A DNA stretch of 64,000 bases. Origin: a virus (Duplodnaviria; Caudoviricetes). Every line of letters starts with the position of its first letter. Positions within the stretch are counted from its first letter, which is position 1. A program made the translations under genes and the position numbers. Shown piece after piece: positions 708-14,609 of this stretch. Location: positions 1 to 64,000 of the IMG/VR virus record IMGVR_UViG_3300019378_000009; one strand, 5' to 3'. The notes beneath the pieces are model-generated. The model saw only the letters and a program-made list of their open reading frames with translations, was not told where the DNA came from and ran no database searches.

Positions 708-938
708 ATGATTAAAGATAGAACTTATCAGTGTCCCAAGTGCGGCGAAGAAGTTATGATTACTTGCGAAGATTATTCTTGCGATATGGATTCGGCTGTT
801 TGGTACTTTGTTTGTGATAAATGCAGCGCCGAATGGGCAGAATATTTTGACCTTACCTATGTAGGTTACAAGTGTGACTTTCGCTATTATGATGAGAAAG
901 GCGTGTGTACGCACGATTATAACAAGGCGGAAAATTAA
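708..938 (+). CDS. small Zn-ribbon protein
   Basis: CPKC and CDKC motifs, AGAAAGGA SD. Confidence 0.75.
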   Translation: MIKDRTYQCPKCGEEVMITCEDYSCDMDSAVWYFVCDKCSAEWAEYFDLTYVGYKCDFRYYDEKGVCTHDYNKAEN

Positions 939-958
939 AATTCCGCCTTCAAGAAAAT

Positions 959-987
959 TTGCTTTTTAGCGAAATTTGTGATATAAT
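959..987 (+). promoter_or_regulatory. sigmaA-type promoter of first tRNA unit
   Basis: TTGCTT-17-TATAAT, TGn extension. Confidence 0.75.
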
Positions 988-1023
988 ATTTATACAAAGA
1001 AAAGAAAAGAAAAAATTTTTTTT

Positions 1024-1100
1024 GGAGCAGTAGCCCAACGGCAGCAGGCGATGCACTCAAAATGCATACAGTGTGGGTTCGAATCCCACTTGCTCTACCA
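1024..1100 (+). tRNA. tRNA-Leu(CAA), short variable loop
   Basis: cloverleaf, ATGCA-CTCAAAA-TGCAT anticodon arm, TTCGAAT T-loop, CCA end. Confidence 0.9.
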
Positions 1101-1127
1101 GTAGTTGATGTCATCCTTTTCTTTCTT

Positions 1128-1153
1128 CCCGTGGTAGGCGGGTAATCCTACCA
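1128..1153 (+). ncRNA. compact H-type pseudoknot before tRNA-Gln
   Basis: CCCG/CGGG crossed with GGTAGG/CCTACC. Confidence 0.6.
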
Positions 1154-1160
1154 TCTATAT

Positions 1161-1236
1161 AGGGGTGTAGCTCATATGGTAGAGCATGGGACTTTGACTC
1201 CCTGTGTAGCAGGTTCGACTCCTGTCACCCCCGCCA
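1161..1236 (+). tRNA. tRNA-Gln(TTG)
   Basis: cloverleaf, CT-TTG-AC loop, 1:72 mismatch typical of Gln, GCCA end. Confidence 0.92.
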
Positions 1237-1260
1237 ACAAACATAAGAAAGGAAATATCT

Positions 1261-1470
1261 ATGCCTAAGTTCGTATATATTGAAGATGATCCTTATGAGG
1301 GTTATTTGCCAGACAATGAGGTGATGGCTTATCATAAGCGTCAGGCAGGTTTCGATGTAAAACATAACATTCGCACAGCGGTTAATCTTGCAACGGCATT
1401 GCCCGAAGATAGTATGGCATTTCACTTTTTGATGAGCCAAGATCCTTGGGACGACGATTGGGGGAATTAA
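1261..1470 (+). CDS. hypothetical protein
   Basis: 69-aa ORF with AGAAAGGA SD. Confidence 0.7.
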   Translation: MPKFVYIEDDPYEGYLPDNEVMAYHKRQAGFDVKHNIRTAVNLATALPEDSMAFHFLMSQDPWDDDWGN

Positions 1471-1472
1471 GT

Positions 1473-1679
1473 ATGACGCTAAAAGAAGCAATAGACATTG
1501 GTCGTGCTATGCATTGTGTAACTATTGCAGATGTAGATGAACTTATTTTTCATTTGTATGAAGATATGGGCATTTGGACAGAAGAAGAGTTGCACGAGTA
1601 TTGGAACGACTATGAAACTTGGTGTAAGCTTTATCACGAAGAATTTCCGAACGCAAAATTCATTGATTTGAAAATTTGA
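1473..1679 (+). CDS. hypothetical protein
   Basis: ATG 2 nt after upstream stop; acidic phage-like composition. Confidence 0.65.
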   Translation: MTLKEAIDIGRAMHCVTIADVDELIFHLYEDMGIWTEEELHEYWNDYETWCKLYHEEFPNAKFIDLKI

Positions 1680-1704
1680 TTTTTGGCAAAATTTATGATA
1701 TAAT
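1676..1704 (+). promoter_or_regulatory. sigmaA-type promoter
   Basis: TTGATT-17-TATAAT with TG. Confidence 0.75.
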
Positions 1705-1777
1705 ATATATGTAAGAAAGCAAGAGAAAAAACTTTTGAACCGCTGAATGTCCAGACGCGGTATATAAACCAGTGGCG

Positions 1778-1802
1778 TCCGCGGTAGGCGGAAAATCCTA
1801 CC
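1778..1802 (+). ncRNA. compact H-type pseudoknot before tRNA-Glu
   Basis: TCCG/CGGA crossed with GGTAGG/CCTACC. Confidence 0.6.
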
Positions 1803-1813
1803 TCCTTTTCTAT

Positions 1814-1888
1814 GGGTGTTTAGTCAAGCGGTTAAGATAGGTGCTTCTCAGGCATCAGACAAGAGTTCGATTCTCTTAACACCTACCA
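1814..1888 (+). tRNA. tRNA-Glu(CTC)
   Basis: cloverleaf, GGTGC-TTCTCAG-GCATC, CCA. Confidence 0.9.
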
Positions 1889-1891
1889 TAT

Positions 1892-1968
1892 GCTTCCGTA
1901 GTCTAACAGGAATAGGATAGTGCCCTTTCAAGGCATTGATGCGGTTTCGAGTACCGCCGGAAGTACCA
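1892..1968 (+). tRNA. tRNA-Glu(TTC)
   Basis: cloverleaf, GTGCC-CTTTCAA-GGCAT, CCA. Confidence 0.9.
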
Positions 1969-1971
1969 ACA

Positions 1972-2053
1972 GGCAATAAGATAGATAGGAGTAATTAACC
2001 TATTGACAAGAGCCGACCTTCTCTTCTTATTGTCAATTACATTAAGGTCAGGA
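1972..2053 (+). promoter_or_regulatory. structured leader of GIY-YIG gene (3-way junction plus pseudoknot next to the SD)
   Basis: GGCAATAAG/CTTATTGTC closing stem, two inner hairpins, loop GACCTT complementary to AAGGTC abutting SD. Confidence 0.55.
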
Positions 2054-2060
2054 TAGAATA

Positions 2061-2834
2061 ATGGTCGGTATTTATAAAATAACTAACTTAATTAATGGAC
2101 ATTCTTACATTGGTCAGTCTGTATGTATCACAGAGAGATGGAATAATCATCGCTGTGCCGCTAGAGAAGGCATAGATTATCCATTATATCGAGCAATGAG
2201 AAAATATGGATTAGATAATTTTTCTTTTGAAATTATTGAAGAATGTCCACAAGAATTGTTAAACGAAAGAGAAAAATATTGGATAAGCTATTATAATACT
2301 TATTATGATGGCTATAATCAAACATTGGGTGGTCAAGGTGCATCTGTTGTAAATCCTAAAATTACAGAAATTAAACAAGAGTTAAAACAGTTTAATTTAA
2401 CAATAAAACAAATTGCAGATAAATACAATCTTTCTCCACAACAATTGGCGGCTATTAATAATGGCAGAGCACATTTTGATGAGAATGAATCTTATCCTAT
2501 TAGAAAGAATGTATTCCAAGTAGCTACTTATATTAATAAGCACGGCGATGGAGCACCCAATCATTGTATTGATTGTAACAGACAAATAAGCAAAGGAGCC
2601 ACGCGATGTAGCGAATGTTCTCATCGCCATCAATCTAAAGCAGATAGACCAAATCCAATAATTTTAGCACAAGAAATACTTTCTATGGGATTTTGTGCCG
2701 TGGGAAGAAAATATGACGTATCTGATAATGCTATACGCAAGTGGTGTAAAGCATACGATATGCCAACCAAAAAGCCAGAAATGCAAAAATGGCTTAATCA
2801 ACAATTAGATATTACTACATCAAATGATGTTTAA
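2061..2834 (+). CDS. GIY-YIG homing endonuclease with C-terminal Zn finger/HTH
   Basis: GIYKITN...YIGQS, catalytic R and E, CxxC pairs, VGRKYxVSDNAIRKWC. Confidence 0.9.
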   Translation: MVGIYKITNLINGHSYIGQSVCITERWNNHRCAAREGIDYPLYRAMRKYGLDNFSFEIIEECPQELLNEREKYWISYYNTYYDGYNQTLGGQGASVVNPKITEIKQELKQFNLTIKQIADKYNLSPQQLAAINNGRAHFDENESYPIRKNVFQVATYINKHGDGAPNHCIDCNRQISKGATRCSECSHRHQSKADRPNPIILAQEILSMGFCAVGRKYDVSDNAIRKWCKAYDMPTKKPEMQKWLNQQLDITTSNDV

Positions 2835-2837
2835 TAT

Positions 2838-3350
2838 ACCAGTGGGTGTTCCGACACCGGTCCATGCCTCGAGAGGACAAAGTTGCGGCGTCGATGTTGT
2901 AAGTTTCACGACGATAAACTTAACTTACCGTGAGGAGACCAAAGTCCGCCAAACGATAGGCAACGATAAGGGGTTACCAATTTATCCCAAATTGGCGTAG
3001 GCTGGCAAGTGGAAGCGTTATTATCAACTTGTCTCTTGGTAGAGCAAATGGAACCATAAGGAAAAGCAATGTGCAATTTGTGGGTTTACATTAAACCCTC
3101 TAATGCGACCGAGGTAATATCAAGGCGCTCTCGGGAATGGCAAAGGGCGCGGCAGCAGCCACGAGAAGGACAACTCGTACAAAACCCAAGCTGGGGAACG
3201 CAATACAAAAGAGCCATAATGTTTGCGTAACTTGTGATGAGGCTATGTCCCTTACAAGTGGAACCTGAAACAGAGGTGTGTAGAAACCTAGCAAGGCCGC
3301 GAATCACTACAATGTGCGCACAAGGCACAGAATCGTATGTCTGTGCCTTA
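2838..3350 (+). ncRNA. unidentified large structured RNA A (~510 nt)
   Basis: GC-rich, no credible ORF, many hairpins and a pseudoknot, abuts a tRNA; boundaries approximate. Confidence 0.55.
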
Positions 3351-3353
3351 TAT

Positions 3354-3425
3354 GGCAAAACCTTCGGCAAGGAACATCGTCTCATACACGAAGTCAATTA
3401 GGATCGACACCTATTTTTGCCACCA
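3354..3425 (+). tRNA. atypical tRNA with CAT anticodon
   Basis: GGCAAAA/TTTTGCC acceptor plus ACCA, TCGT-CTCATAC-ACGA, short D arm, T-loop ATCGACA. Confidence 0.65.
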
Positions 3426-3460
3426 CGACGCGTTACATTATTGGTTTCCTCCTTTCTTTC

Positions 3461-3489
3461 TAGCGGAGGGGTAGCCGCTAATCTACCCC
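3461..3489 (+). ncRNA. compact H-type pseudoknot before tRNA-fMet
   Basis: TAGCGG/CCGCTA crossed with GGGGTAG/CTACCCC. Confidence 0.65.
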
Positions 3490-3497
3490 ACTTTTCT

Positions 3498-3573
<76 letters not shown>

Positions 3574-3759
3574 TTACCCATAGGATGAGGGTAGTTAATA
3601 GTCCTACTGTTTCTTTGTTTTAGTGAAAAACATTGGCACGACAGTAAGTGAAGTTACTGTGATGTTCTTACCATCGGTTGTAAGACACGGTTTCCGTATT
3701 TATCGTGGCGTTGACTTGGGTCCGCAAGCCTGACTAGCAAAATACGGTTATAAGAAAAT

Positions 3760-3788
3760 TTGATTTTTTGTCTAATTTGCGTTATAAT
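3760..3788 (+). promoter_or_regulatory. sigmaA-type promoter
   Basis: TTGATT-17-TATAAT. Confidence 0.7.
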
Positions 3789-3814
3789 AATTATACAAAA
3801 GAAAAAAGTTAAAT

Positions 3815-3888
3815 GCGGGTATCGTATAACAGTAGTATAACGGTCTTCCAAACCGTGGGCACCGGGCCAGCACCGGTTATCCGCTCCA
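3815..3888 (+). tRNA. tRNA-Gly(TCC)
   Basis: GCGGGTA/TATCCGC, CT-TCC-AA loop, U73, variant T-loop GCCAGCA. Confidence 0.88.
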
Positions 3889-3890
3889 AA

Positions 3891-4545
3891 GCGCAGATTG
3901 GGTGACACGAGCATGAGAAGTAGATAGCGGTTGAAAATCGTGCGGGAGAGAGTACCTCTACCCAAGAGGGAAAGTCAGAGCTTTATGGCGATAAGATAAA
4001 AGTCTGATAATGCTTATCCCACCGAAGAATACGGTATATAAACTCGCTAAGGGTGCAGAAAACCCTTCGGTTGACCTCGTTAGACACTTAGATTGTTTGT
4101 CAGGGCTTTGTAGGGATAAAGTGGTCAAAAACCTTCCGCCTCTTCTGGCGTTAACGGGCATCAGGTTGGTGATGTAAAATTTACGGCAGCGGTGGGCCGT
4201 ACCAGTACATCCGCAAGGTGGTTAGTGCTTGCACCAATAATGAAGCGACGTCGGCGGAGGCGAGAAACACCGTGGAGCCAACTAGTTCGGCGTATGTAGA
4301 CTATGTATGGAGCAGCCATCTAAAAAGCCGGGGTCTCGTATCCGTGAGCAACGAGGAGTGCATTGGAACTCTGGCACTATAAAGATTATTGATTCATTGG
4401 GCGGATATAGATGTTAACCACGTCGAGTAGCATCAAACCTTTGTCGGTCGGATAGTCCGCAAAAACACCGTGGCGGGAGCGTATCTCCTGCTCCAACCCG
4501 AGGATTGAGGGGATGGTAACTACCGACCTACTGAAACAGGTAGCA
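3891..4545 (+). ncRNA. unidentified large structured RNA B (~650 nt; may extend to 4805)
   Basis: ORF-free, GC-rich, numerous stems between tRNA-Gly and tRNA-Ser. Confidence 0.55.
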
Positions 4546-4550
4546 TAAAA

Positions 4551-4648
4551 ATTTCACACGATTCACTGGGCTCCGGGTGGTTCAACTCCACCTGTCTGGC
4601 AATGTGCTAGGCATGAGGATGTAGGATGTTGCGGAGATAGTGTGAAAT
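4551..4648 (+). ncRNA. circularly permuted tRNA-like RNA (YrlA/Y-RNA-like)
   Basis: closing stem, then T arm GGTGG-TTCAACT-CCACC, loop-closed 9-bp acceptor, D-like arm with GG, back to closing stem. Confidence 0.6.
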
Positions 4649-4807
4649 AGTTACAGTCGCGAATGTAACAAACGCGACTTCTTGGACGCAAGAGTTGCGG
4701 ACGGACGGAAGGAACATATCCGTCGTTAAAGAACCCGTATATGGTAGGCGGCGAATCAACCACGCAGAAGAATAGCAATGCACTGCGATAACAAAAGCAG
4801 CTTATAT

Positions 4808-4898
4808 GGAGGATTGGAGTAATTTGGTATCTCAAGGGATTGCTAATCCCTCCTACAGTCATCCTGTAGTACAGGTTCGAGTCCTGTATCTTCCGCCA
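4808..4898 (+). tRNA. tRNA-Ser(GCT)
   Basis: long variable arm, TT-GCT-AA loop, GCCA. Confidence 0.92.
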
Positions 4899-5038
4899 TA
4901 CAACGGGCCCCCGGCAGTTTAAAGGCAGTTCTGCCGTACTCGAGCAAACGAGGTAATGTCAAATTTTTGATATTGGGGACAAAACGACCAAAAACGCCAG
5001 AGGCGCCCAACCAAAAATTTTAACGGAGGAAATAATCT

Positions 5039-5329
5039 ATGTATTTCATTATACGCTACAATTGGAATATTAATACTTTTGCGCTTACTAATAGAAAAAC
5101 AGTAGGTTATTTTGATACGCTCTCCAAAGCCTATGATACAATTACAAAGTGTCTACCGAATGACACAGCTCGTAATACAGTAGCAATAGCAGAAATACCA
5201 GAGGGCATAGACCAATACGCACATCCAAAAATGACATTTGAGTGGTGTGAGCAGTATGATTGCTATGTACCTGTCGCGGCAGACGATCCGCGACGCAGTT
5301 TCACTATGTGTTTTACGAGCAGAGACTAA
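5039..5329 (+). CDS. hypothetical protein
   Basis: 96-aa ORF with GGAGG SD. Confidence 0.7.
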   Translation: MYFIIRYNWNINTFALTNRKTVGYFDTLSKAYDTITKCLPNDTARNTVAIAEIPEGIDQYAHPKMTFEWCEQYDCYVPVAADDPRRSFTMCFTSRD

Positions 5330-5349
5330 GTTTCTGCTCTTTTATTTTT

Positions 5350-5424
5350 ACATGGTTAGTTTAACGGAAAGAACAGATGGCTACGAACTATCAGATATGG
5401 GTTCAACTCCTGTACCATGTGCCA
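5350..5424 (+). tRNA. tRNA-Arg(ACG)
   Basis: cloverleaf, CT-ACG-AA loop, CCA. Confidence 0.9.
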
Positions 5425-5426
5425 AT

Positions 5427-5501
5427 GCCCGAATAGCATAACGGATAGTGCAGCGGATTTCTAATCCGCCTATGAGGGTCCGACTCCTTCTTCGGGTGCC
5501 A
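5427..5501 (+). tRNA. tRNA-Arg(TCT)
   Basis: cloverleaf, GCGGA-TTTCTAA-TCCGC, CCA. Confidence 0.9.
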
Positions 5502-5509
5502 AATAATAT

Positions 5510-5585
5510 ACTGGTGTAATTCAGTGGTTAGAAGCCTCGTCTGATACGCGAGTCGTCGGTGGTTCGAATCCACCCACCAGTACCA
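5510..5585 (+). tRNA. tRNA-Ile(GAT)
   Basis: cloverleaf, CT-GAT-AC loop, CCA. Confidence 0.9.
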
Positions 5586-5670
5586 CGCCAGAGATGAGTA
5601 ACAAATTAGCGCCACCTGGGCAATAAATAAAGACGCAAATAAGTAGTTAGCTGATTTAAAGCTATCATAT

Positions 5671-5756
5671 GCTCTAGTCGCATAGTGGCCGATTGCACTC
5701 GCCTTGTAAGCGAGAGACGAAAGTCCCCGTCCGTTCGAATCGGACCTAGAGCTCCA
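5671..5756 (+). tRNA. tRNA-Thr(TGT) with extra variable arm
   Basis: CTCGC-CTTGTAA-GCGAG, GAC-GAAA-GTC variable hairpin, CCA. Confidence 0.85.
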
Positions 5757-5758
5757 AT

Positions 5759-5835
5759 GCCCCCGTAGGCCAACTGGAAGAGCCGTCAGTCTTAGAAACT
5801 GAATGTTGTGGGTTCGAATCCCACCGGTGGCACCA
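5759..5835 (+). tRNA. tRNA-Leu(TAG), short variable loop
   Basis: TCAGT-CTTAGAA-ACTGA, CCA. Confidence 0.88.
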
Positions 5836-5959
5836 AAGCGTTATGGTTCGCGCTCCATCGTGGTCCATATAAAAACTGGGAGAGCCGCCAAGTATGGTAG
5901 ACTTGTCGGTAGCAAGGGGTAAAACACTACCAGTCCGATTCACGGCACCCTTGCAGTAT

Positions 5960-6033
5960 GTTCGCTTCGTATAATGGTAGTATGCTGACTCTTAATCAGT
6001 AAGGTATGGGTTCGAGTCCCATGGCGAGCACCA
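5960..6033 (+). tRNA. tRNA-Lys(CTT)
   Basis: cloverleaf, CT-CTT-AA loop, CCA. Confidence 0.9.
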
Positions 6034-6054
6034 AAAACAAAAGAAGGTAATTTT

Positions 6055-6267
6055 ATGGAACACAGAGAGTGGATTGAGTTTTTAGTAGACAAATTTATTA
6101 CCAATGAAACTAAAGTACGATGCTGCGGCAGTTGTATGGGAGGTTGCATAAATCCTACAACTTGTTTCATCTGTTGTGGTTTTTCTGCGCAACATCTTAA
6201 CGATTATATTGAAAAAATTGGCAAAGATAAACTTAATCAAGAATTTGAACAAAGAATGGTCGAGTAG
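6055..6267 (+). CDS. Cys-rich small protein overlapping tRNA-Cys
   Basis: GAAGG SD, 7 Cys in 19 codons, stop codon lies inside tRNA-Cys. Confidence 0.65.
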   Translation: MEHREWIEFLVDKFITNETKVRCCGSCMGGCINPTTCFICCGFSAQHLNDYIEKIGKDKLNQEFEQRMVE

Positions 6268-6343
6268 TCAAGTGGCTTAAGACTCCGGTCTGCAACACCG
6301 CGTACCTTAATTGGCGTGAGTTCGAATCTCACCTCGACCTCCA
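6258..6343 (+). tRNA. tRNA-Cys(GCA), long variable region
   Basis: GGTCGAG/CTCGACC, CT-GCA-AC loop, U73, CCA. Confidence 0.88.
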
Positions 6344-6368
6344 ACGCAAAATGCGCCGTGACAAAAAT

Positions 6369-6397
6369 TTGATTTTTAGCGCAATTCATGATATAAT
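6369..6397 (+). promoter_or_regulatory. sigmaA-type promoter
   Basis: TTGATT-17-TATAAT with TG. Confidence 0.75.
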
Positions 6398-6570
6398 ATT
6401 ATTGTAAGAAAGCAAAGGAAAAACTTTGTTTCTCTTGCGGGCAAGGTTATATTGGCAGAGTAGATTAACAGCCCTTAATATGAAACGCGAACTGTCCCCA
6501 CAGCACTGTGGATTACAGTGCTAGCCCAGTATGTCGGCTTGAAACTTATACCGTGTTCATACGATAGTTG

Positions 6571-6596
6571 GCGGTTGGCGACTCCGTATAAGTCGC
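6571..6596 (+). ncRNA. compact H-type pseudoknot before tRNA-Asp
   Basis: GCGG/CCGT crossed with GCGACT/AGTCGC. Confidence 0.55.
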
Positions 6597-6606
6597 ATCC
6601 TTTTCT

Positions 6607-6681
6607 GGTCATGTAGCTCAGGGGTAGAGCACCTCGCTGTCACCGAGGAGGTCGGGCTGTCGGAATGCCTCATGATCGCCA
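6607..6681 (+). tRNA. tRNA-Asp(GTC), variant T arm
   Basis: CCTCG-CTGTCAC-CGAGG, G73, T-loop GTCGGAA. Confidence 0.85.
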
Positions 6682-7409
6682 GACCCTGACATAGGGCCGC
6701 TATACTATGTTGGTTTGACTGACCGAATCAGTTGGCTATCACCTCGCCGAAAGGGTGCGGCTTCTCTTTTCACGATATGGAATTGAGTGACTTGTGGGTA
6801 CGAGATTGAACGATCGCTCACCCGTGGTTCAAAGTAACTGTGAATTAAATATCGTTTGGGTTTGGTTTCCACCCGCTTAGCGGCGAACGGACGTGTTACC
6901 GTACTGCGATAACAAACGGGGTTTTAGTTGGGAAGGTTTGTCCTATAAATTGACTTCCTCGGGAGCTCGCGTCCCCGTAAGGTTAGCTGACCAACCGCAA
7001 CTCAAGAACATTCCACGCTTGGCTTGGCGGCGAAAGGTGGCGTTGTTGGTGATTTGAGTCGAAAATTGAAATCATCGCTTTTGGGCAATTTAGTGTAATG
7101 AAATTGCTATGGAGTTCAAGTCCCAGATACGCACAGAGGCGTTAGAAGAGCCTCGCCGCGGTAAAGACCTAGCCAGTCAACTTGTACAGTCGTTAGAATA
7201 AGGACGATGCCAAAAGTCTTATTCGCCATCCTACTTGAGCCAAGCAAGAGAGGAATTGGTTTAAAATTGGGCTTGGTAAATCACGCAGGCTTTCATTTTA
7301 TATGTTTGCATCCTCGTGCGGTGGCAGTCGACGAAACAATAGATTGCGGCGGCTTTTAATAGTTGAGTCGAGGCTCTGTAGAGTCTTAAGGGTGGCACCA
7401 CAACTATTA
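6682..7409 (+). ncRNA. unidentified large structured RNA C (~730 nt)
   Basis: ORF-free, long-range stems such as GCTTGGCTT/GAGCCAAGC and TAATAGTTG/CAACTATTA, fills the gap between two tRNAs. Confidence 0.55.
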
Positions 7410-7414
7410 CATAT

Positions 7415-7490
7415 ATCTGTTTAGCTCAGCTGGGAGAGCGCCGTTCTTACAAATCGGAGGTCATAGGTCCGAGTCCTATAACAGATACCA
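7415..7490 (+). tRNA. tRNA-Val(TAC)
   Basis: cloverleaf, CT-TAC-AA loop, CCA. Confidence 0.88.
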
Positions 7491-7491
7491 T

Positions 7492-7565
7492 AGGAGGGTC
7501 AGTCAAAGGAAGGCTAGTGGTCTCCAAAACCACCAATGGGATGTCAGAATTCTCACCTCCTGCCA
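7492..7565 (+). tRNA. tRNA-Trp(CCA), variant T arm
   Basis: GTGGT-CTCCAAA-ACCAC, G73, T-loop GTCAGAA. Confidence 0.82.
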
Positions 7566-7568
7566 TTT

Positions 7569-7645
7569 GGGGAATTAGCTCATGTTGGGAGAGCATCCGC
7601 CCTGCAAGCGGAAGGTGATGGGATCGTCGCCCATATTCTCCACCA
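7569..7645 (+). tRNA. tRNA-Ala(TGC)
   Basis: G3:U70, TCCGC-CCTGCAA-GCGGA (C33), CCA. Confidence 0.88.
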
Positions 7646-7703
7646 AAACACGAACAATCCGCCATACTGGCTCCGAACTCGTGTATAAATAAACGGAACA
7701 AGA

Positions 7704-7735
7704 GGGTTTGTAGTGTGACCTACCAAAAACACTAC
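7704..7735 (+). ncRNA. H-type pseudoknot before tRNA-Asn
   Basis: GGGTT/GACCT crossed with GTAGTGT/ACACTAC. Confidence 0.5.
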
Positions 7736-7739
7736 TTGT

Positions 7740-7814
7740 GGGAGATTCGCAAAGTGGTTGTTGCATGCGGCTGTTAACCGCACTACAGGGGTTCAATTCC
7801 CTTATCTCCCGCCA
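7740..7814 (+). tRNA. tRNA-Asn(GTT)
   Basis: TGCGG-CTGTTAA-CCGCA, GCCA. Confidence 0.9.
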
Positions 7815-7976
7815 GCGGGAGTTTCGTTTGTTACCCGTGAACTGCTTACCCAAAGAAACATAGGGTAAACAAAAGCAGACCAGTATAGGTCGGGGCAAGA
7901 TGGGATAATTCCTGCAGGTCTAATGCTTCCCCGTAAAGGATACAGAGAAGACTGTGGTACTTCCTATACTAAGTAT

Positions 7977-8065
7977 GGTGAATTAGCCTAATGGTAAGGC
8001 AGCAGTCTTGAAAACTGCCGTTGGTGTGAAAGCCATTCAGGGTTCGAATCCCTGGTTCACCGCCA
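7977..8065 (+). tRNA. tRNA-Ser(TGA)
   Basis: long variable arm, CT-TGA-AA loop, GCCA. Confidence 0.92.
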
Positions 8066-8091
8066 AAATATAATAATGGAGTTGTTTAAGT

Positions 8092-8730
8092 ATGGCATAC
8101 ATTTATAAAATTACCAATCAAATTAATCAAAAATGTTATATCGGTAAAACACTAAGAACCATAGAAGTTCGTTGGAGAGAACATCGAAAAGATTATCAAA
8201 AACCAGAAAAAAGTCATCAACCGTTATACAGAGCAATGAATAAGTATGGATTTGATAATTTTGCAATTAGTATCGTCGAAGAATGTGACGACACAATTGT
8301 AGAAGAAAGAGAACGATATTGGATTGAATATTATCAATCTTTTAAAAATGGTTATAATGCTACATTGGGTGGGGACGGAAAGCCGTATATTGATTATGAT
8401 AAAGTTTGCGCTTTATATGAAATATATAAGAACCAAAACGAAGTAGCTAGGCAAATGAATATTAACAAAACTACTGTGCATTATATACTACGGCAACGGA
8501 ACATAGATATGATTCCCTCTTCTTTAGTCACGCCGATGACTACAGGTAAAGTAGTACATCAATATTCATTAAATAATGATTATATCAATACTTTTATGTC
8601 TTTAAGCGAGGCAGCTCGTTATTTAAAAGATGAGTATAATATTACTGCAAATATATCTTCTATTGTATGTAATATTGGTCGTTGTCTTTCTGGCAAAAGA
8701 AAAACTGCTTATAAATTTATTTGGAAATAA
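8092..8730 (+). CDS. GIY-YIG homing endonuclease with NUMOD1-like C-terminus
   Basis: YIYKITN..YIGKT; VHQYSLNNDYINTFMSLSEAA...TAYKFIW. Confidence 0.9.
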   Translation: MAYIYKITNQINQKCYIGKTLRTIEVRWREHRKDYQKPEKSHQPLYRAMNKYGFDNFAISIVEECDDTIVEERERYWIEYYQSFKNGYNATLGGDGKPYIDYDKVCALYEIYKNQNEVARQMNINKTTVHYILRQRNIDMIPSSLVTPMTTGKVVHQYSLNNDYINTFMSLSEAARYLKDEYNITANISSIVCNIGRCLSGKRKTAYKFIWK

Positions 8731-11723: not shown

Positions 11724-11752
11724 TTGATTTTTAACAAAATTTATGCTATAAT
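11724..11752 (+). promoter_or_regulatory. sigmaA-type promoter of the giant-RNA transcription unit
   Basis: TTGATT-17-TATAAT with TG. Confidence 0.8.
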
Positions 11753-14580: not shown

Positions 14581-14609
14581 TTGATTTTTTTTAAATTTTA
14601 TGGTATAAT
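14581..14609 (+). promoter_or_regulatory. sigmaA-type promoter
   Basis: TTGATT-17-TATAAT with TG. Confidence 0.75.

Follow-up and report, generated by a model that had tools for sequence, protein, structure and literature searches.

Compact H-type pseudoknots recur just upstream of tRNA genes in a gut-type phage and may cap spacer RNAs released by RNase P

Five compact H-type pseudoknots, here called E1-E5, lie directly before tRNA genes in a gut-type phage of the Caudoviricetes, at positions that chance does not explain, and knots of the same kind occupy the same place in other phages, with compensatory changes in their stems. In the tRNA operons, each of the five elements is the final structural module of its non-coding spacer or leader, and quite possibly they act as a boundary module, which provides a short RNase P leader and caps the upstream RNA at its new 3' end. 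For this role we infer RNase P-made 3' ends, exonuclease resistance and relevance of the capped RNAs.

Results

Position and geometry of the pseudoknots

The window, i.e. the whole stretch of DNA that was analysed, comprises 64,000 nucleotides (positions 1 to 64,000 of IMG/VR record IMGVR_UViG_3300019378_000009). The initial annotation had placed five H-type pseudoknots in it, each 4-11 nt before a tRNA, and both the sequence and our parses agree with these places, all on the plus strand, with a gap of 4-11 nt between the 3' end of the element and the tRNA gene. The common fold consists of a first stem (S1) of 4-5 bp, a first loop (L1) of 1-3 nt, a second stem (S2) of 6-7 bp, a junction of 0 nt and an A/U-rich third loop (L3). 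Neighboring elements are 650-3100 nt apart, over a total spread of 6.6 kb.

E1 (1128-1152, +; CCCG-u-GGUAGG-CGGG-uaau-CCUACC) pairs 1128-1131 with 1139-1142 in S1 and 1133-1138 with 1147-1152 in S2, leaving L1 at 1132 and L3 at 1143-1146, for a stem energy sum of -21.0 kcal/mol. It begins 27 nt after the preceding tRNA, a 17-nt anti-Shine-Dalgarno-like pyrimidine tract (1114-1130, +; UCCUUUUCUUUCUUCCC) extends into its S1, and an 8-nt single-stranded leader (1153-1160, +; AUCUAUAU) joins it to tRNA-Gln (1161-1236). The second element, E2 (1778-1802, +; UCCG-c-GGUAGG-CGGA-aaau-CCUACC; S1 1778-1781/1789-1792, L1 1782, S2 1783-1788/1797-1802, L3 1793-1796; -19.7 kcal/mol), ends a promoter-proximal leader of ~100 nt that starts at a TG-extended sigma-70-type promoter (1676-1704, +; TTGATT-17-TATAAT), and is followed 11 nt further on by tRNA-Glu(CUC) at 1814; the intervening leader (1803-1813, +) is UCCUUUUCUAU, which joined to the end of S2 reads ACCUCCUUUUCUA. 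Directly 3' of another 17-nt pyrimidine tract (3445-3461, +; UUUCCUCCUUUCUUUCU) lies E3 (3462-3489, +; AGCGG-a-GGGGUAG-CCGCU-aau-CUACCCC), with S1 at 3462-3466/3475-3479, L1 at 3467, S2 at 3468-3474/3483-3489, L3 at 3480-3482, a stem energy sum of -26.1 kcal/mol and an 8-nt leader (3490-3497, +; ACUUUUCU) before an initiator-like tRNA-Met at 3498.

E4 (6571-6596, +; GCGG-uug-GCGACU-CCGU-aua-AGUCGC) likewise ends a promoter-proximal leader, structured and ~200 nt long, which starts at a promoter at 6369-6397 (+). Its S1 (6571-6574/6584-6587) includes one G-U pair, L1 occupies 6575-6577, S2 6578-6583/6591-6596 and L3 6588-6590, the stem energies sum to -19.7 kcal/mol, and a 10-nt leader (6597-6606, +; AUCCUUUUCU) precedes tRNA-Asp (6607-6681), which has an Rfam call of 44.8 bits and no ARAGORN call. 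E5 (7704-7735, +; GGGUU-u-GUAGUGU-GACCU-accaaaa-ACACUAC), which begins 58 nt after the preceding tRNA, has S1 at 7704-7708/7717-7721 with two terminal G-U pairs, L1 at 7709, S2 at 7710-7716/7729-7735, an A-rich L3 at 7722-7728 and a stem energy sum of -19.8 kcal/mol; the 4-nt leader UUGU (7736-7739, +) links it to tRNA-Asn at 7740. The G-U pairs of E4 and E5 assign the fold to the RNA strand of tRNA sense.

The motif CTTTTCT follows E2, E3 and E4, in keeping with the three cases that the initial annotation had counted, and these three elements have the appearance of weak terminators. Pyrimidine tracts resembling an anti-Shine-Dalgarno sequence adjoin four of the five elements. As read from sequence, the 1-72 pair is irregular in three of the five tRNAs that follow the elements (Gln A-C, Met G-G, Glu G-U).

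The CPK-1 class is defined by a loop 1 of 1-2 nt, a stem 2 of 6-7 bp and no nucleotides between the stems (PMC11262651). L1 is 1 nt in E1, E2, E3 and E5, and 3 nt in E4, which places E4 outside the strict definition; S2 measures 6, 6, 7, 6 and 7 bp, respectively; and the junction is 0 nt in the best parses of all five, from which coaxial stacking is predicted. The absence of a second loop, initially described for every element, thus stands in these parses, although for E5 it appears only when the stems are drawn as 5+7 bp with the two terminal G-U pairs. The L3 loops contain 14 A among 21 nucleotides and no G, as expected of a strand lying in the minor groove. Judged by sequence, the elements are predicted to be real RNA pseudoknots of compact coaxial CPK-1 geometry.

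Comparison with shuffled sequence and the whole genome

The frequency expected by chance, which would have undone the initial proposal, is refuted by the pattern search: the pattern, ending 2-12 nt before a tRNA, was found at 6 of the 20 tRNAs preceded by a spacer, whereas 300 dinucleotide shuffles gave a mean of 0.047 and a maximum of 1. At the energy cutoff, 5/20 real upstream windows passed, versus 0.5% of shuffled ones, and the summed stem energies of the five elements (-19.7 to -26.1 kcal/mol) were reached by no shuffle (0/60 for each element). When the whole 109-kb genome was scanned for energy, 5 of the 32 plus-strand loci fell in the 0.3% of positions that lie upstream of tRNAs (Poisson 9e-8), and the same enrichment confined to the RNA island gave a Poisson value of 2e-5. 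Pattern matches with a stem GC of at least 0.7 number five on the plus strand of the genome, four of them being E1-E4, upstream of tRNAs. For ordinary nested folds, the z-scores of E2-E5 lie in an unremarkable range (-0.2 to -1.1; E1, -2.1), so the signal is mainly pseudoknot-specific.

Recurrence and compensatory change

With unchanged scan parameters, we compared the present phage (G000) with G013 and G016, two IMG/VR phages that have tRNA-island modules in common with it. In G013, 5/22 windows passed the energy cutoff, four of them with compact knots 5-7 nt upstream of a tRNA; the remaining fold lies 2-3 nt before tRNA-Cys and amounts essentially to a long hairpin. G016 had 4/19 passing windows, with knots 5-9 nt upstream. 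The three genomes pooled give 14/61 windows against the shuffle rate of 0.5% (binomial ~1e-19), and the spacing between knot and tRNA is 4-11 nt in the present phage, 2-7 nt in G013 and 5-9 nt in G016.

The predicted pairing is kept across differing sequences, in this genome as well as among knots at matching positions in other phages. The tRNA-Glu(UUC) knots of G013 and G016 differ by three double changes in 12 pairs with no pair broken; E1 and the G013 tRNA-Gly knot have the same S1 and L1, while S2 carries two double changes, again with none broken; and E1 and E2 differ by one double change in S1, with all pairs intact. The covariation within one genome that the initial annotation described therefore holds across different sequences, but the five elements are not independent, as E1-E3 are copies related in sequence (GGUAG...AAUC(C)UACC).

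Discussion

RNase P cleaves at tRNA position +1, and a cut at the tRNA 5' end would leave every knot 4-11 nt from the new 3' end, as the initial annotation had reasoned; the tight spacing in three genomes (2-11 nt) fits an end made in this way. In the boundary-module reading, sigma-70-type promoters would drive transcription of the operon, folding of the knot would leave a single-stranded leader of 4-11 nt, about the RNase P contact length, and cleavage at +1 would give the upstream RNA a 3' end formed by the knot and a short tail. This tail may be too short to offer 3'-to-5' exonucleases a good toe-hold, and a 6-7 bp stem with a taut 1-nt bridging loop would resist unwinding from the 3' side. 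The RNAs so capped would be the ~100-nt and ~200-nt promoter-proximal leaders (E2 and E4), an endonuclease mRNA plus a ~600-nt non-coding RNA (E3), and inter-tRNA spacers of 60 nt and 94 nt (E1 and E5). RNase P is able to split polycistronic tRNA precursors, after which exonucleases act at the new 3' ends (PMC2190699). Several points weigh against a cap. E1 and E5 follow another tRNA, whose exonucleolytic 3'-trailer trimming a cap would block unless an endonuclease cuts after CCA; stems of 4+6 bp may fail to stop RNase R; and G005-G007, which are closer to the present phage by polymerase, are without knots before their tRNAs. The same island also encodes two large non-coding RNAs, with ends at 4807 and 7414, that lack such a knot, so that not every spacer needs a cap.

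The spacing is equally compatible with a role in the quality of the RNase P substrate, i.e. with a processing insulator that serves the downstream tRNA by locking the upstream sequence into a compact fold of its own, so that the pre-tRNA would fold correctly and a single-stranded leader of defined length would set the rate or fidelity of cleavage. The tight distance to +1 in three genomes, the confinement of knots among the GC-rich matches to the neighborhood of tRNAs, and the irregular 1-72 pairs make this credible, but we consider it doubtful, as the knot is absent before most tRNAs of the same operons, the knot-bearing tRNAs have no common identity, and a plain hairpin would suffice, yet compensatory change maintains S1. 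It is unlikely that E2-E4 are weak intrinsic terminators or attenuators, in which the S2 hairpin and U-rich tail would stop or pause polymerase while S1 pairing tunes the speed of S2 formation. A lenient consensus scan does list the S2 hairpin and tail of these three as terminator-like, no promoter separates E2 or E4 from its tRNA, both being in promoter-proximal leaders, and a canonical terminator hairpin, downstream of ORF 5039-5329 in the window, abuts tRNA-Arg at 5350; their U runs, however, start 2-4 nt past the stem and are interrupted by C, which makes them poor terminators, E1 and E5 fail the scan, the tails of E1, E5 and eight compact G013/G016 knots are not U-rich, and efficient termination would silence the downstream tRNAs. 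A site for protein binding or mimicry, at which a coaxial helix of 9-12 bp nucleates an RNA-binding protein or imitates the 12-bp acceptor/T-arm minihelix, appears decidedly improbable: S1 and S2 together give 10-12 bp in all five, tRNA enzymes including RNase P recognise the minihelix, and E1 and E2 have an S2 hairpin similar to a T arm, but a CCA-like tail is absent, no candidate binding protein was identified, and sequence-specific recognition is unlikely since the copies differ. Among 117 matches to GGTAGGN5AATCCTACC, 58 represent one recurring core, which we take to be the tRNA T arm.

The elements might also have no function, as remnants of duplicated tRNA/spacer modules with fortuitous pairing; E1-E3 are related, and the tRNA islands are mosaic, with spacer modules that shift between different tRNAs. 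We regard this as very unlikely, given that geometry and position are the same in E4, E5 and the G013 and G016 knots despite their unrelated sequences, that compensatory changes occur, and that the shuffle statistics exclude chance. Least probable is the initial suggestion of an antitoxin mimic or decoy against a host toxin of ToxN, CptN or TenpN type, which we have dropped. Phage pseudo-ToxI is known to exist, and the general small-pseudoknot topology is in common, nothing more. Type III antitoxins (ToxI, CptI, TenpI) are tandem 34-45 nt repeats beside the toxin gene and are cut by their own toxin, whereas E1-E5 lie scattered along 6.6 kb with differing sequences, although an antitoxin must match one particular toxin, and they have no sequence similarity to these families. 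Tandem Repeats Finder returned an AAAGA run and no 34-45 nt direct repeats in 900-8200, and Rfam gave no family match for the elements even at E<=10. The tie to tRNA 5' ends in three genomes is not predicted by an antitoxin model. ToxN (PF13958) had 0 matches in the phage, but the control genomes likewise gave none, and a decoy needs no toxin gene.

Several known systems resemble the proposed cap. At the 3' end of MALAT1 and MEN-beta an ENE triple helix precedes the tRNA-like mascRNA, which RNase P removes, so that a protective structure a few nucleotides upstream of the RNase P site and tRNA-type processing yield a capped 3' end; by analogy, the cap would be the bacterial-virus counterpart of a structured 3' end obtained by cutting off a downstream tRNA-like RNA. 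That eukaryotic nuclear case has a U-rich/A-rich triple helix and a tRNA mimic, whereas here a 25-32 nt H-type knot precedes true tRNAs, and protection is only presumed. The T2/T4 gene 32 knot, also from phage RNA, has the same build, with a 1-2 nt L1 across the deep groove of a 6-7 bp S2 and junction-free coaxial stems, but it begins a processed mRNA and there nucleates the binding of gp32, which leads to translation repression; E1-E5 instead end non-coding spacers 4-11 nt ahead of tRNAs, several copies occur in each genome, and E4 has an L1 of 3 nt. Downstream of the knot in T4, the RNA is unstructured and becomes coated with gp32 (PMC3014915). [quoted passage not shown]

Theta (minimal HDV-like) ribozymes are likewise small pseudoknotted RNAs at tRNA ends of gut Caudoviricetes, for which a role in replacing or assisting host processing enzymes has been proposed, but form a nested double pseudoknot (P1, P1.1, P2, P3, P4) with a cleavage site <=5 nt from the tRNA and a proposed role at the 3' trailer (PMC10879173). 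We rejected a theta or HDV-like ribozyme because two stems in 25-32 nt are too small, the elements precede the tRNA 5' end and begin either 27 and 58 nt past the preceding tRNA (E1, E5) or downstream of promoters, and no HDV-type Rfam match was found; a preQ1-I riboswitch (RF00522) was likewise rejected, with no match at E<=10 and a tRNA, not an ORF, downstream. Rho-independent terminators and stabilising 3' stem-loops resemble E2-E4 in a GC-rich hairpin with a pyrimidine/U-rich tail, which here too would protect a 3' end; in E1-E5, however, the loop pairs upstream to form the knot, the U tract is of low quality, and cleavage, not termination, would produce the 3' end.

In a further reading, distinctly unlikely in our view, RNase P would release from the tRNA operons small RNAs that act in trans as anti-Shine-Dalgarno sponges or repressors, with the knots as a stabilising domain at the 3' (or 5') end; the adjoining pyrimidine tracts UUUCCUCCUUUCUUUCU, CAUCCUUUUCUUUCUUCCC and ACCUCCUUUUCUAU would serve as their single-stranded active parts, and ACCUCCUUUUCUAU presumably resembles the 3' tail of the 16S rRNA of Bacillota closely. 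The phage has ~50 consensus promoters, most followed by a purine-rich Shine-Dalgarno leader to which these three tracts are complementary, hence the proposed sponge action; the released RNAs would then adjust how phage or host mRNAs are translated in the course of infection.

Plain hairpins occupy the same place as well. Besides the terminator hairpin before tRNA-Arg, the near relative L089 has, 7 nt before a tRNA, a stable plain hairpin that contains the stop codon of an ORF; it also has a three-stem knot that ends 7 nt before tRNA-Lys. These cases suggest that a stable structure, a short tail and a tRNA, in this order, form a general design.

The RNA island and its pseudoknots

The source record is a complete phage genome of 109,428 bp with direct terminal repeats, of which the window represents the first 64 kb. 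A Bacillota host is likely, since the nearest cultured relatives of its YorL/DnaE-type polymerase are SPbeta-like Bacillus phages (39% identity). Between 1,000 and 14,500 lies an RNA island, in which tRNAs, homing-endonuclease genes and long gene-free stretches are interleaved. Of the tRNAs in the window, 23 were identified by ARAGORN and two more by Rfam (3815 and 6607); all are on the plus strand, and CCA is encoded in every listed tRNA.

Five compact H-type pseudoknots had been reported just upstream of tRNAs in the initial annotation, and all five were found there, each 25–32 nt in length and composed of two stems (S1, S2) and two loops (L1, L3) in the order S1-L1-S2-S1'-L3-S2'. E1 (1128-1152; CCCG-u-GGUAGG-CGGG-uaau-CCUACC) precedes tRNA-Gln, E2 (1778-1802; UCCG-c-GGUAGG-CGGA-aaau-CCUACC) precedes tRNA-Glu(CUC), E3 (3462-3489; AGCGG-a-GGGGUAG-CCGCU-aau-CUACCCC) precedes tRNA-Met, E4 (6571-6596; GCGG-uug-GCGACU-CCGU-aua-AGUCGC) precedes tRNA-Asp and E5 (7704-7735; GGGUU-u-GUAGUGU-GACCU-accaaaa-ACACUAC) precedes tRNA-Asn, at distances of 8, 11, 8, 10 and 4 nt, respectively, in agreement with the claimed range of 4-11 nt. 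As to the claim that the elements differ in sequence, E4 and E5 are unrelated, and E1-E3 are related copies with GGUAG...AAUC(C)UACC in common. G-U pairs are present in E4 and E5, and the fold is therefore fixed to the tRNA-sense RNA strand. L3 contains A at 14 of 21 positions and G at none, a composition that would suit a strand lying along the S1 minor groove.

The motif CTTTTCT, said to follow three of the elements, is present 3' of E2-E4; it has only 14 plus-strand copies genome-wide, four of which flank these knots. A general closing helix between CUUUUCU and a purine-rich 5' leader was rejected, as the pairing is found in the E2 fold only and is absent in E4. The E1/E2 core recurs in degenerate form (GGTAGGCGGCGAATCAACCAC, 4743-4765), with the 3' strand of S2 missing, 43 nt upstream of tRNA-Ser(GCU). 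Another compact knot candidate (3573-3606; UUACCC-a-UAGGAU..GGGUAG..AGUCCUA, -21 kcal/mol) begins at the final CCA base of tRNA-Met and would be the 5'-terminal element of the spacer that follows. Minus-strand small ORFs at 935-1114 and 6475-6612, with starts at AGAAAAGGATG complements, were dismissed because they overlap a tRNA and a knot in antisense orientation.

Comparison with shuffled sequence

The pseudoknot pattern of the initial annotation was found 2-12 nt upstream of 6/20 spacer-preceded tRNAs, against a mean of 0.047 in 300 dinucleotide-preserving shuffles; the sixth match is an ordinary terminator hairpin (5317-5339). Summed stem energies of E1-E5 range from -19.7 to -26.1 kcal/mol, with all other tRNA leaders no lower than -16; shuffling each stretch upstream of a spacer-preceded tRNA 60 times never gave an energy as good as that observed. 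Scanning the whole genome by energy returned 32 plus-strand loci, five of which fall in the 0.3% of positions that precede a tRNA by 2-14 nt (Poisson, 9e-8; RNA island alone, 2e-5), although parameter ranges were tuned on E1-E5 and these within-genome P values are therefore optimistic. When stem GC was restricted to >=0.7, four of the five plus-strand pattern matches were E1-E4. Nested-fold z-scores of the same upstream stretches were unremarkable for E2-E5 (-0.2 to -1.1), with a modest value for E1 (-2.1), so the signal stems mainly from the crossing S1 pairing, and only 8-9% of comparable hairpins in the genome have an S1 partner. Taken together, E1-E5 exceed what chance produces.

Knots in other phages

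Homologues were present in ENA/Logan assemblies only (polymerase 82-88% and ORF 134-613 65-94% identity). No close relative was found in IMG/VR, where single-protein locus searches were empty and an ORF-159 alignment led to one tRNA-free fragment. The exact E1/E2 core had no match in IMG/VR; relaxing the S1' bases gave at least 117 matches, about half of which contain the same recurrent core, resembling the T arm of a tRNA, and a compatible S1 was present in just one of the matches listed, which is AT-rich. The best IMG/VR polymerase matches reached 47-51% identity, and the three complete genomes among these (G005-G007, 47-48% by tblastn) lack a knot upstream of any tRNA, despite carrying 28-30 tRNAs each; therefore, the feature is not tied to the replication core.

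Two further phages, G013 (135 kb) and G016 (130 kb), were found via unusual tRNA segments of the island. The polymerase of G013 is only 38% identical to that of this phage, while its tRNA-Asp, tRNA-Ala and long-arm 'Thr' tRNA are 86-92% identical. With parameters unchanged, compact knots were detected 5-7 nt upstream of tRNA-Lys, Glu, Gly and Leu in G013, whose fifth passing stretch (tRNA-Cys) is essentially a long hairpin, and 5-9 nt upstream of tRNA-Glu, Ala, Pro and Leu in G016. Across the three genomes, 14/61 upstream stretches passed, compared with a shuffle rate of 0.5% (binomial ~1e-19). Such knots are absent from G015, G017 and G018, three phages that all have the long-arm tRNA segment. 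One knot (GCGGG-n-CCAGCUU-CCCGY-auccaa-RAGCUGG) is common to G013 (stretch L213, reverse strand, 8537-8567) and G016 (stretch L221, reverse strand, ~6981-7011); it lies 5 nt upstream of tRNA-Pro in G016 and 123 nt in G013, where extra sequence is inserted between knot and tRNA.

Compensatory changes were assessed by pairwise comparison of knots by script; a MAFFT alignment of E1-E5 was not in structural register. Between the tRNA-Glu(UUC) knots of G013 and G016, three of 12 pairs show double changes and two show G-U shifts, with none broken. The G013 tRNA-Gly knot (CCCG-u-GGGAGA-u-CGGG-accu-UCUCCC) has S1 and L1 in common with E1 and two double changes in S2, and a single double change, located in S1, distinguishes E2 from E1. 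The knot is a recurrent, structurally selected element of the spacers, at a fixed distance to the RNase P site.

Plain hairpins also occupy this position. L089, the near relative, a 6.5-kb metagenome contig with an ORF-159 homologue 94% identical to that of the window, has an island that is mosaic relative to that of this phage. It carries a three-stem chained pseudoknot (3044-3103; a-b-a'-c-b'-c', stems 8-9 bp) 7 nt upstream of tRNA-Lys(UUU), a looser knot 6 nt upstream of tRNA-Cys, and a plain hairpin, enclosing the stop codon of the ORF before it, 7 nt upstream of an amber-suppressor tRNA. In this phage, hairpins lie 4-10 nt upstream of tRNA-Arg at 5350 and tRNA-Leu at 100567. The general rule in this lineage is a stable structure, a short single-stranded tail and a tRNA; its most elaborate version, and the one under the strongest selection, is the compact knot. 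The amber-suppressor tRNA of L089 (6256-6330, anticodon CUA) was named 'Pyl' by ARAGORN. A canonical terminator hairpin with a U tract (5317-5349) abuts tRNA-Arg(ACG) without an intervening promoter, and a hairpin plus U tract is found directly upstream of tRNA-Cys in G005 and G006.

Identity and possible function

None of the elements, searched as short stretches against Rfam 15 at E<=10, matched a family of any kind, and identities as a riboswitch, ribozyme or ToxI antitoxin were rejected accordingly. The suggestion of a type III antitoxin mimic was not borne out, with no Rfam antitoxin match and no tandem repeat array. E1-E5 share the geometry of CPK-1, a pseudoknot class defined in PMC11262651, the prototype of which is the T2/T4 gene 32 knot (PMC3014915). 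Theta ribozymes are nested double knots with a cleavage site <=5 nt from a tRNA, for which a function in processing 3' trailers has been proposed (PMC10879173), whereas E1-E5 are two-stem knots located upstream of tRNA 5' ends.

Polycistronic tRNA precursors can be separated by RNase P alone, and the 3' ends so created are then attacked by exonucleases (PMC2190699). RNase P must cleave at tRNA +1, which would leave an upstream RNA ending in the knot plus 4-11 nt, and we tentatively propose, from sequence and position, that the knot may act as an RNase P-coupled boundary and 3' cap. A weakness of this model is that E1 and E5 follow tRNAs, 3' trimming of which would need an endonuclease. The main rival, that the knot benefits the downstream tRNA by insulating its folding and setting the leader length, strikes us as rather unlikely; the fixed knot-tRNA spacing fits it and is equally compatible with a cap. 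Termination, conceivable for E2-E4 at most, whose S2 hairpins with their tails were accepted by a lenient scan, is improbable; the tails of E1, E5 and the G013 and G016 knots are not U-rich.

The usual view of phage tRNA islands is that they are simple arrays of genes. If the cap model is true, the 'spacers' of tRNA operons would turn out to be stabilised and perhaps functional RNAs, and bacterial viruses would share a logic with eukaryotic MALAT1-type RNAs; the model would then offer a practical way to approach the unexplained non-coding RNAs filling these islands. Should protection be confirmed, the knots, as very short natural modules (25-32 nt), could be used as portable 3'-end stabilisers.

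Promoters, pyrimidine tracts and unusual tRNAs

The genome contains ~50 near-identical promoter modules, TTGAnn-17-TATAAT (the repeated form TTGATT-17-TATAAT is the one from which the RNA island would be transcribed), frequently with a TG extension, located at 73-101, 1676-1704, 3760-3788, 6369-6397, 11724-11752 and 14581-14609, with ~45 more elsewhere. Most are followed by a very short purine-rich leader, and at several modules the -35 box is overlapped by a preceding hairpin. Complementary to these leaders are pyrimidine tracts resembling an anti-Shine-Dalgarno sequence, which adjoin four of the five knots (1114-1130, 3445-3461, 1801-1811 and 6598-6606); the two 17-nt tracts are the longest among those listed in the first 54 kb, and each abuts a knot. 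The E2 tail and S2 end (ACCUCCUUUUCUA) resemble the 3' tail of Bacillota 16S rRNA. Similar tracts are found upstream of knots, hairpins or tRNAs in G013 and G016. Enrichment near tRNAs is modest: 3/12 listed island tracts of >=10 nt lie <=45 nt upstream of a spacer-preceded tRNA.

Between tRNA-Val and tRNA-Ala, a sequence that is tRNA-shaped by eye (7491-7565), carrying the anticodon CCA and an unusual T arm, was called by neither ARAGORN nor Rfam. The 86-nt long-arm 'Thr(UGU)' tRNA (5671-5756) has a 45-nt core identical in G013 (L213, reverse strand), and the two acceptor stems differ by compensatory changes (GCUCUAG/CUAGAGC against GCUGAAG/CUUCAGC).
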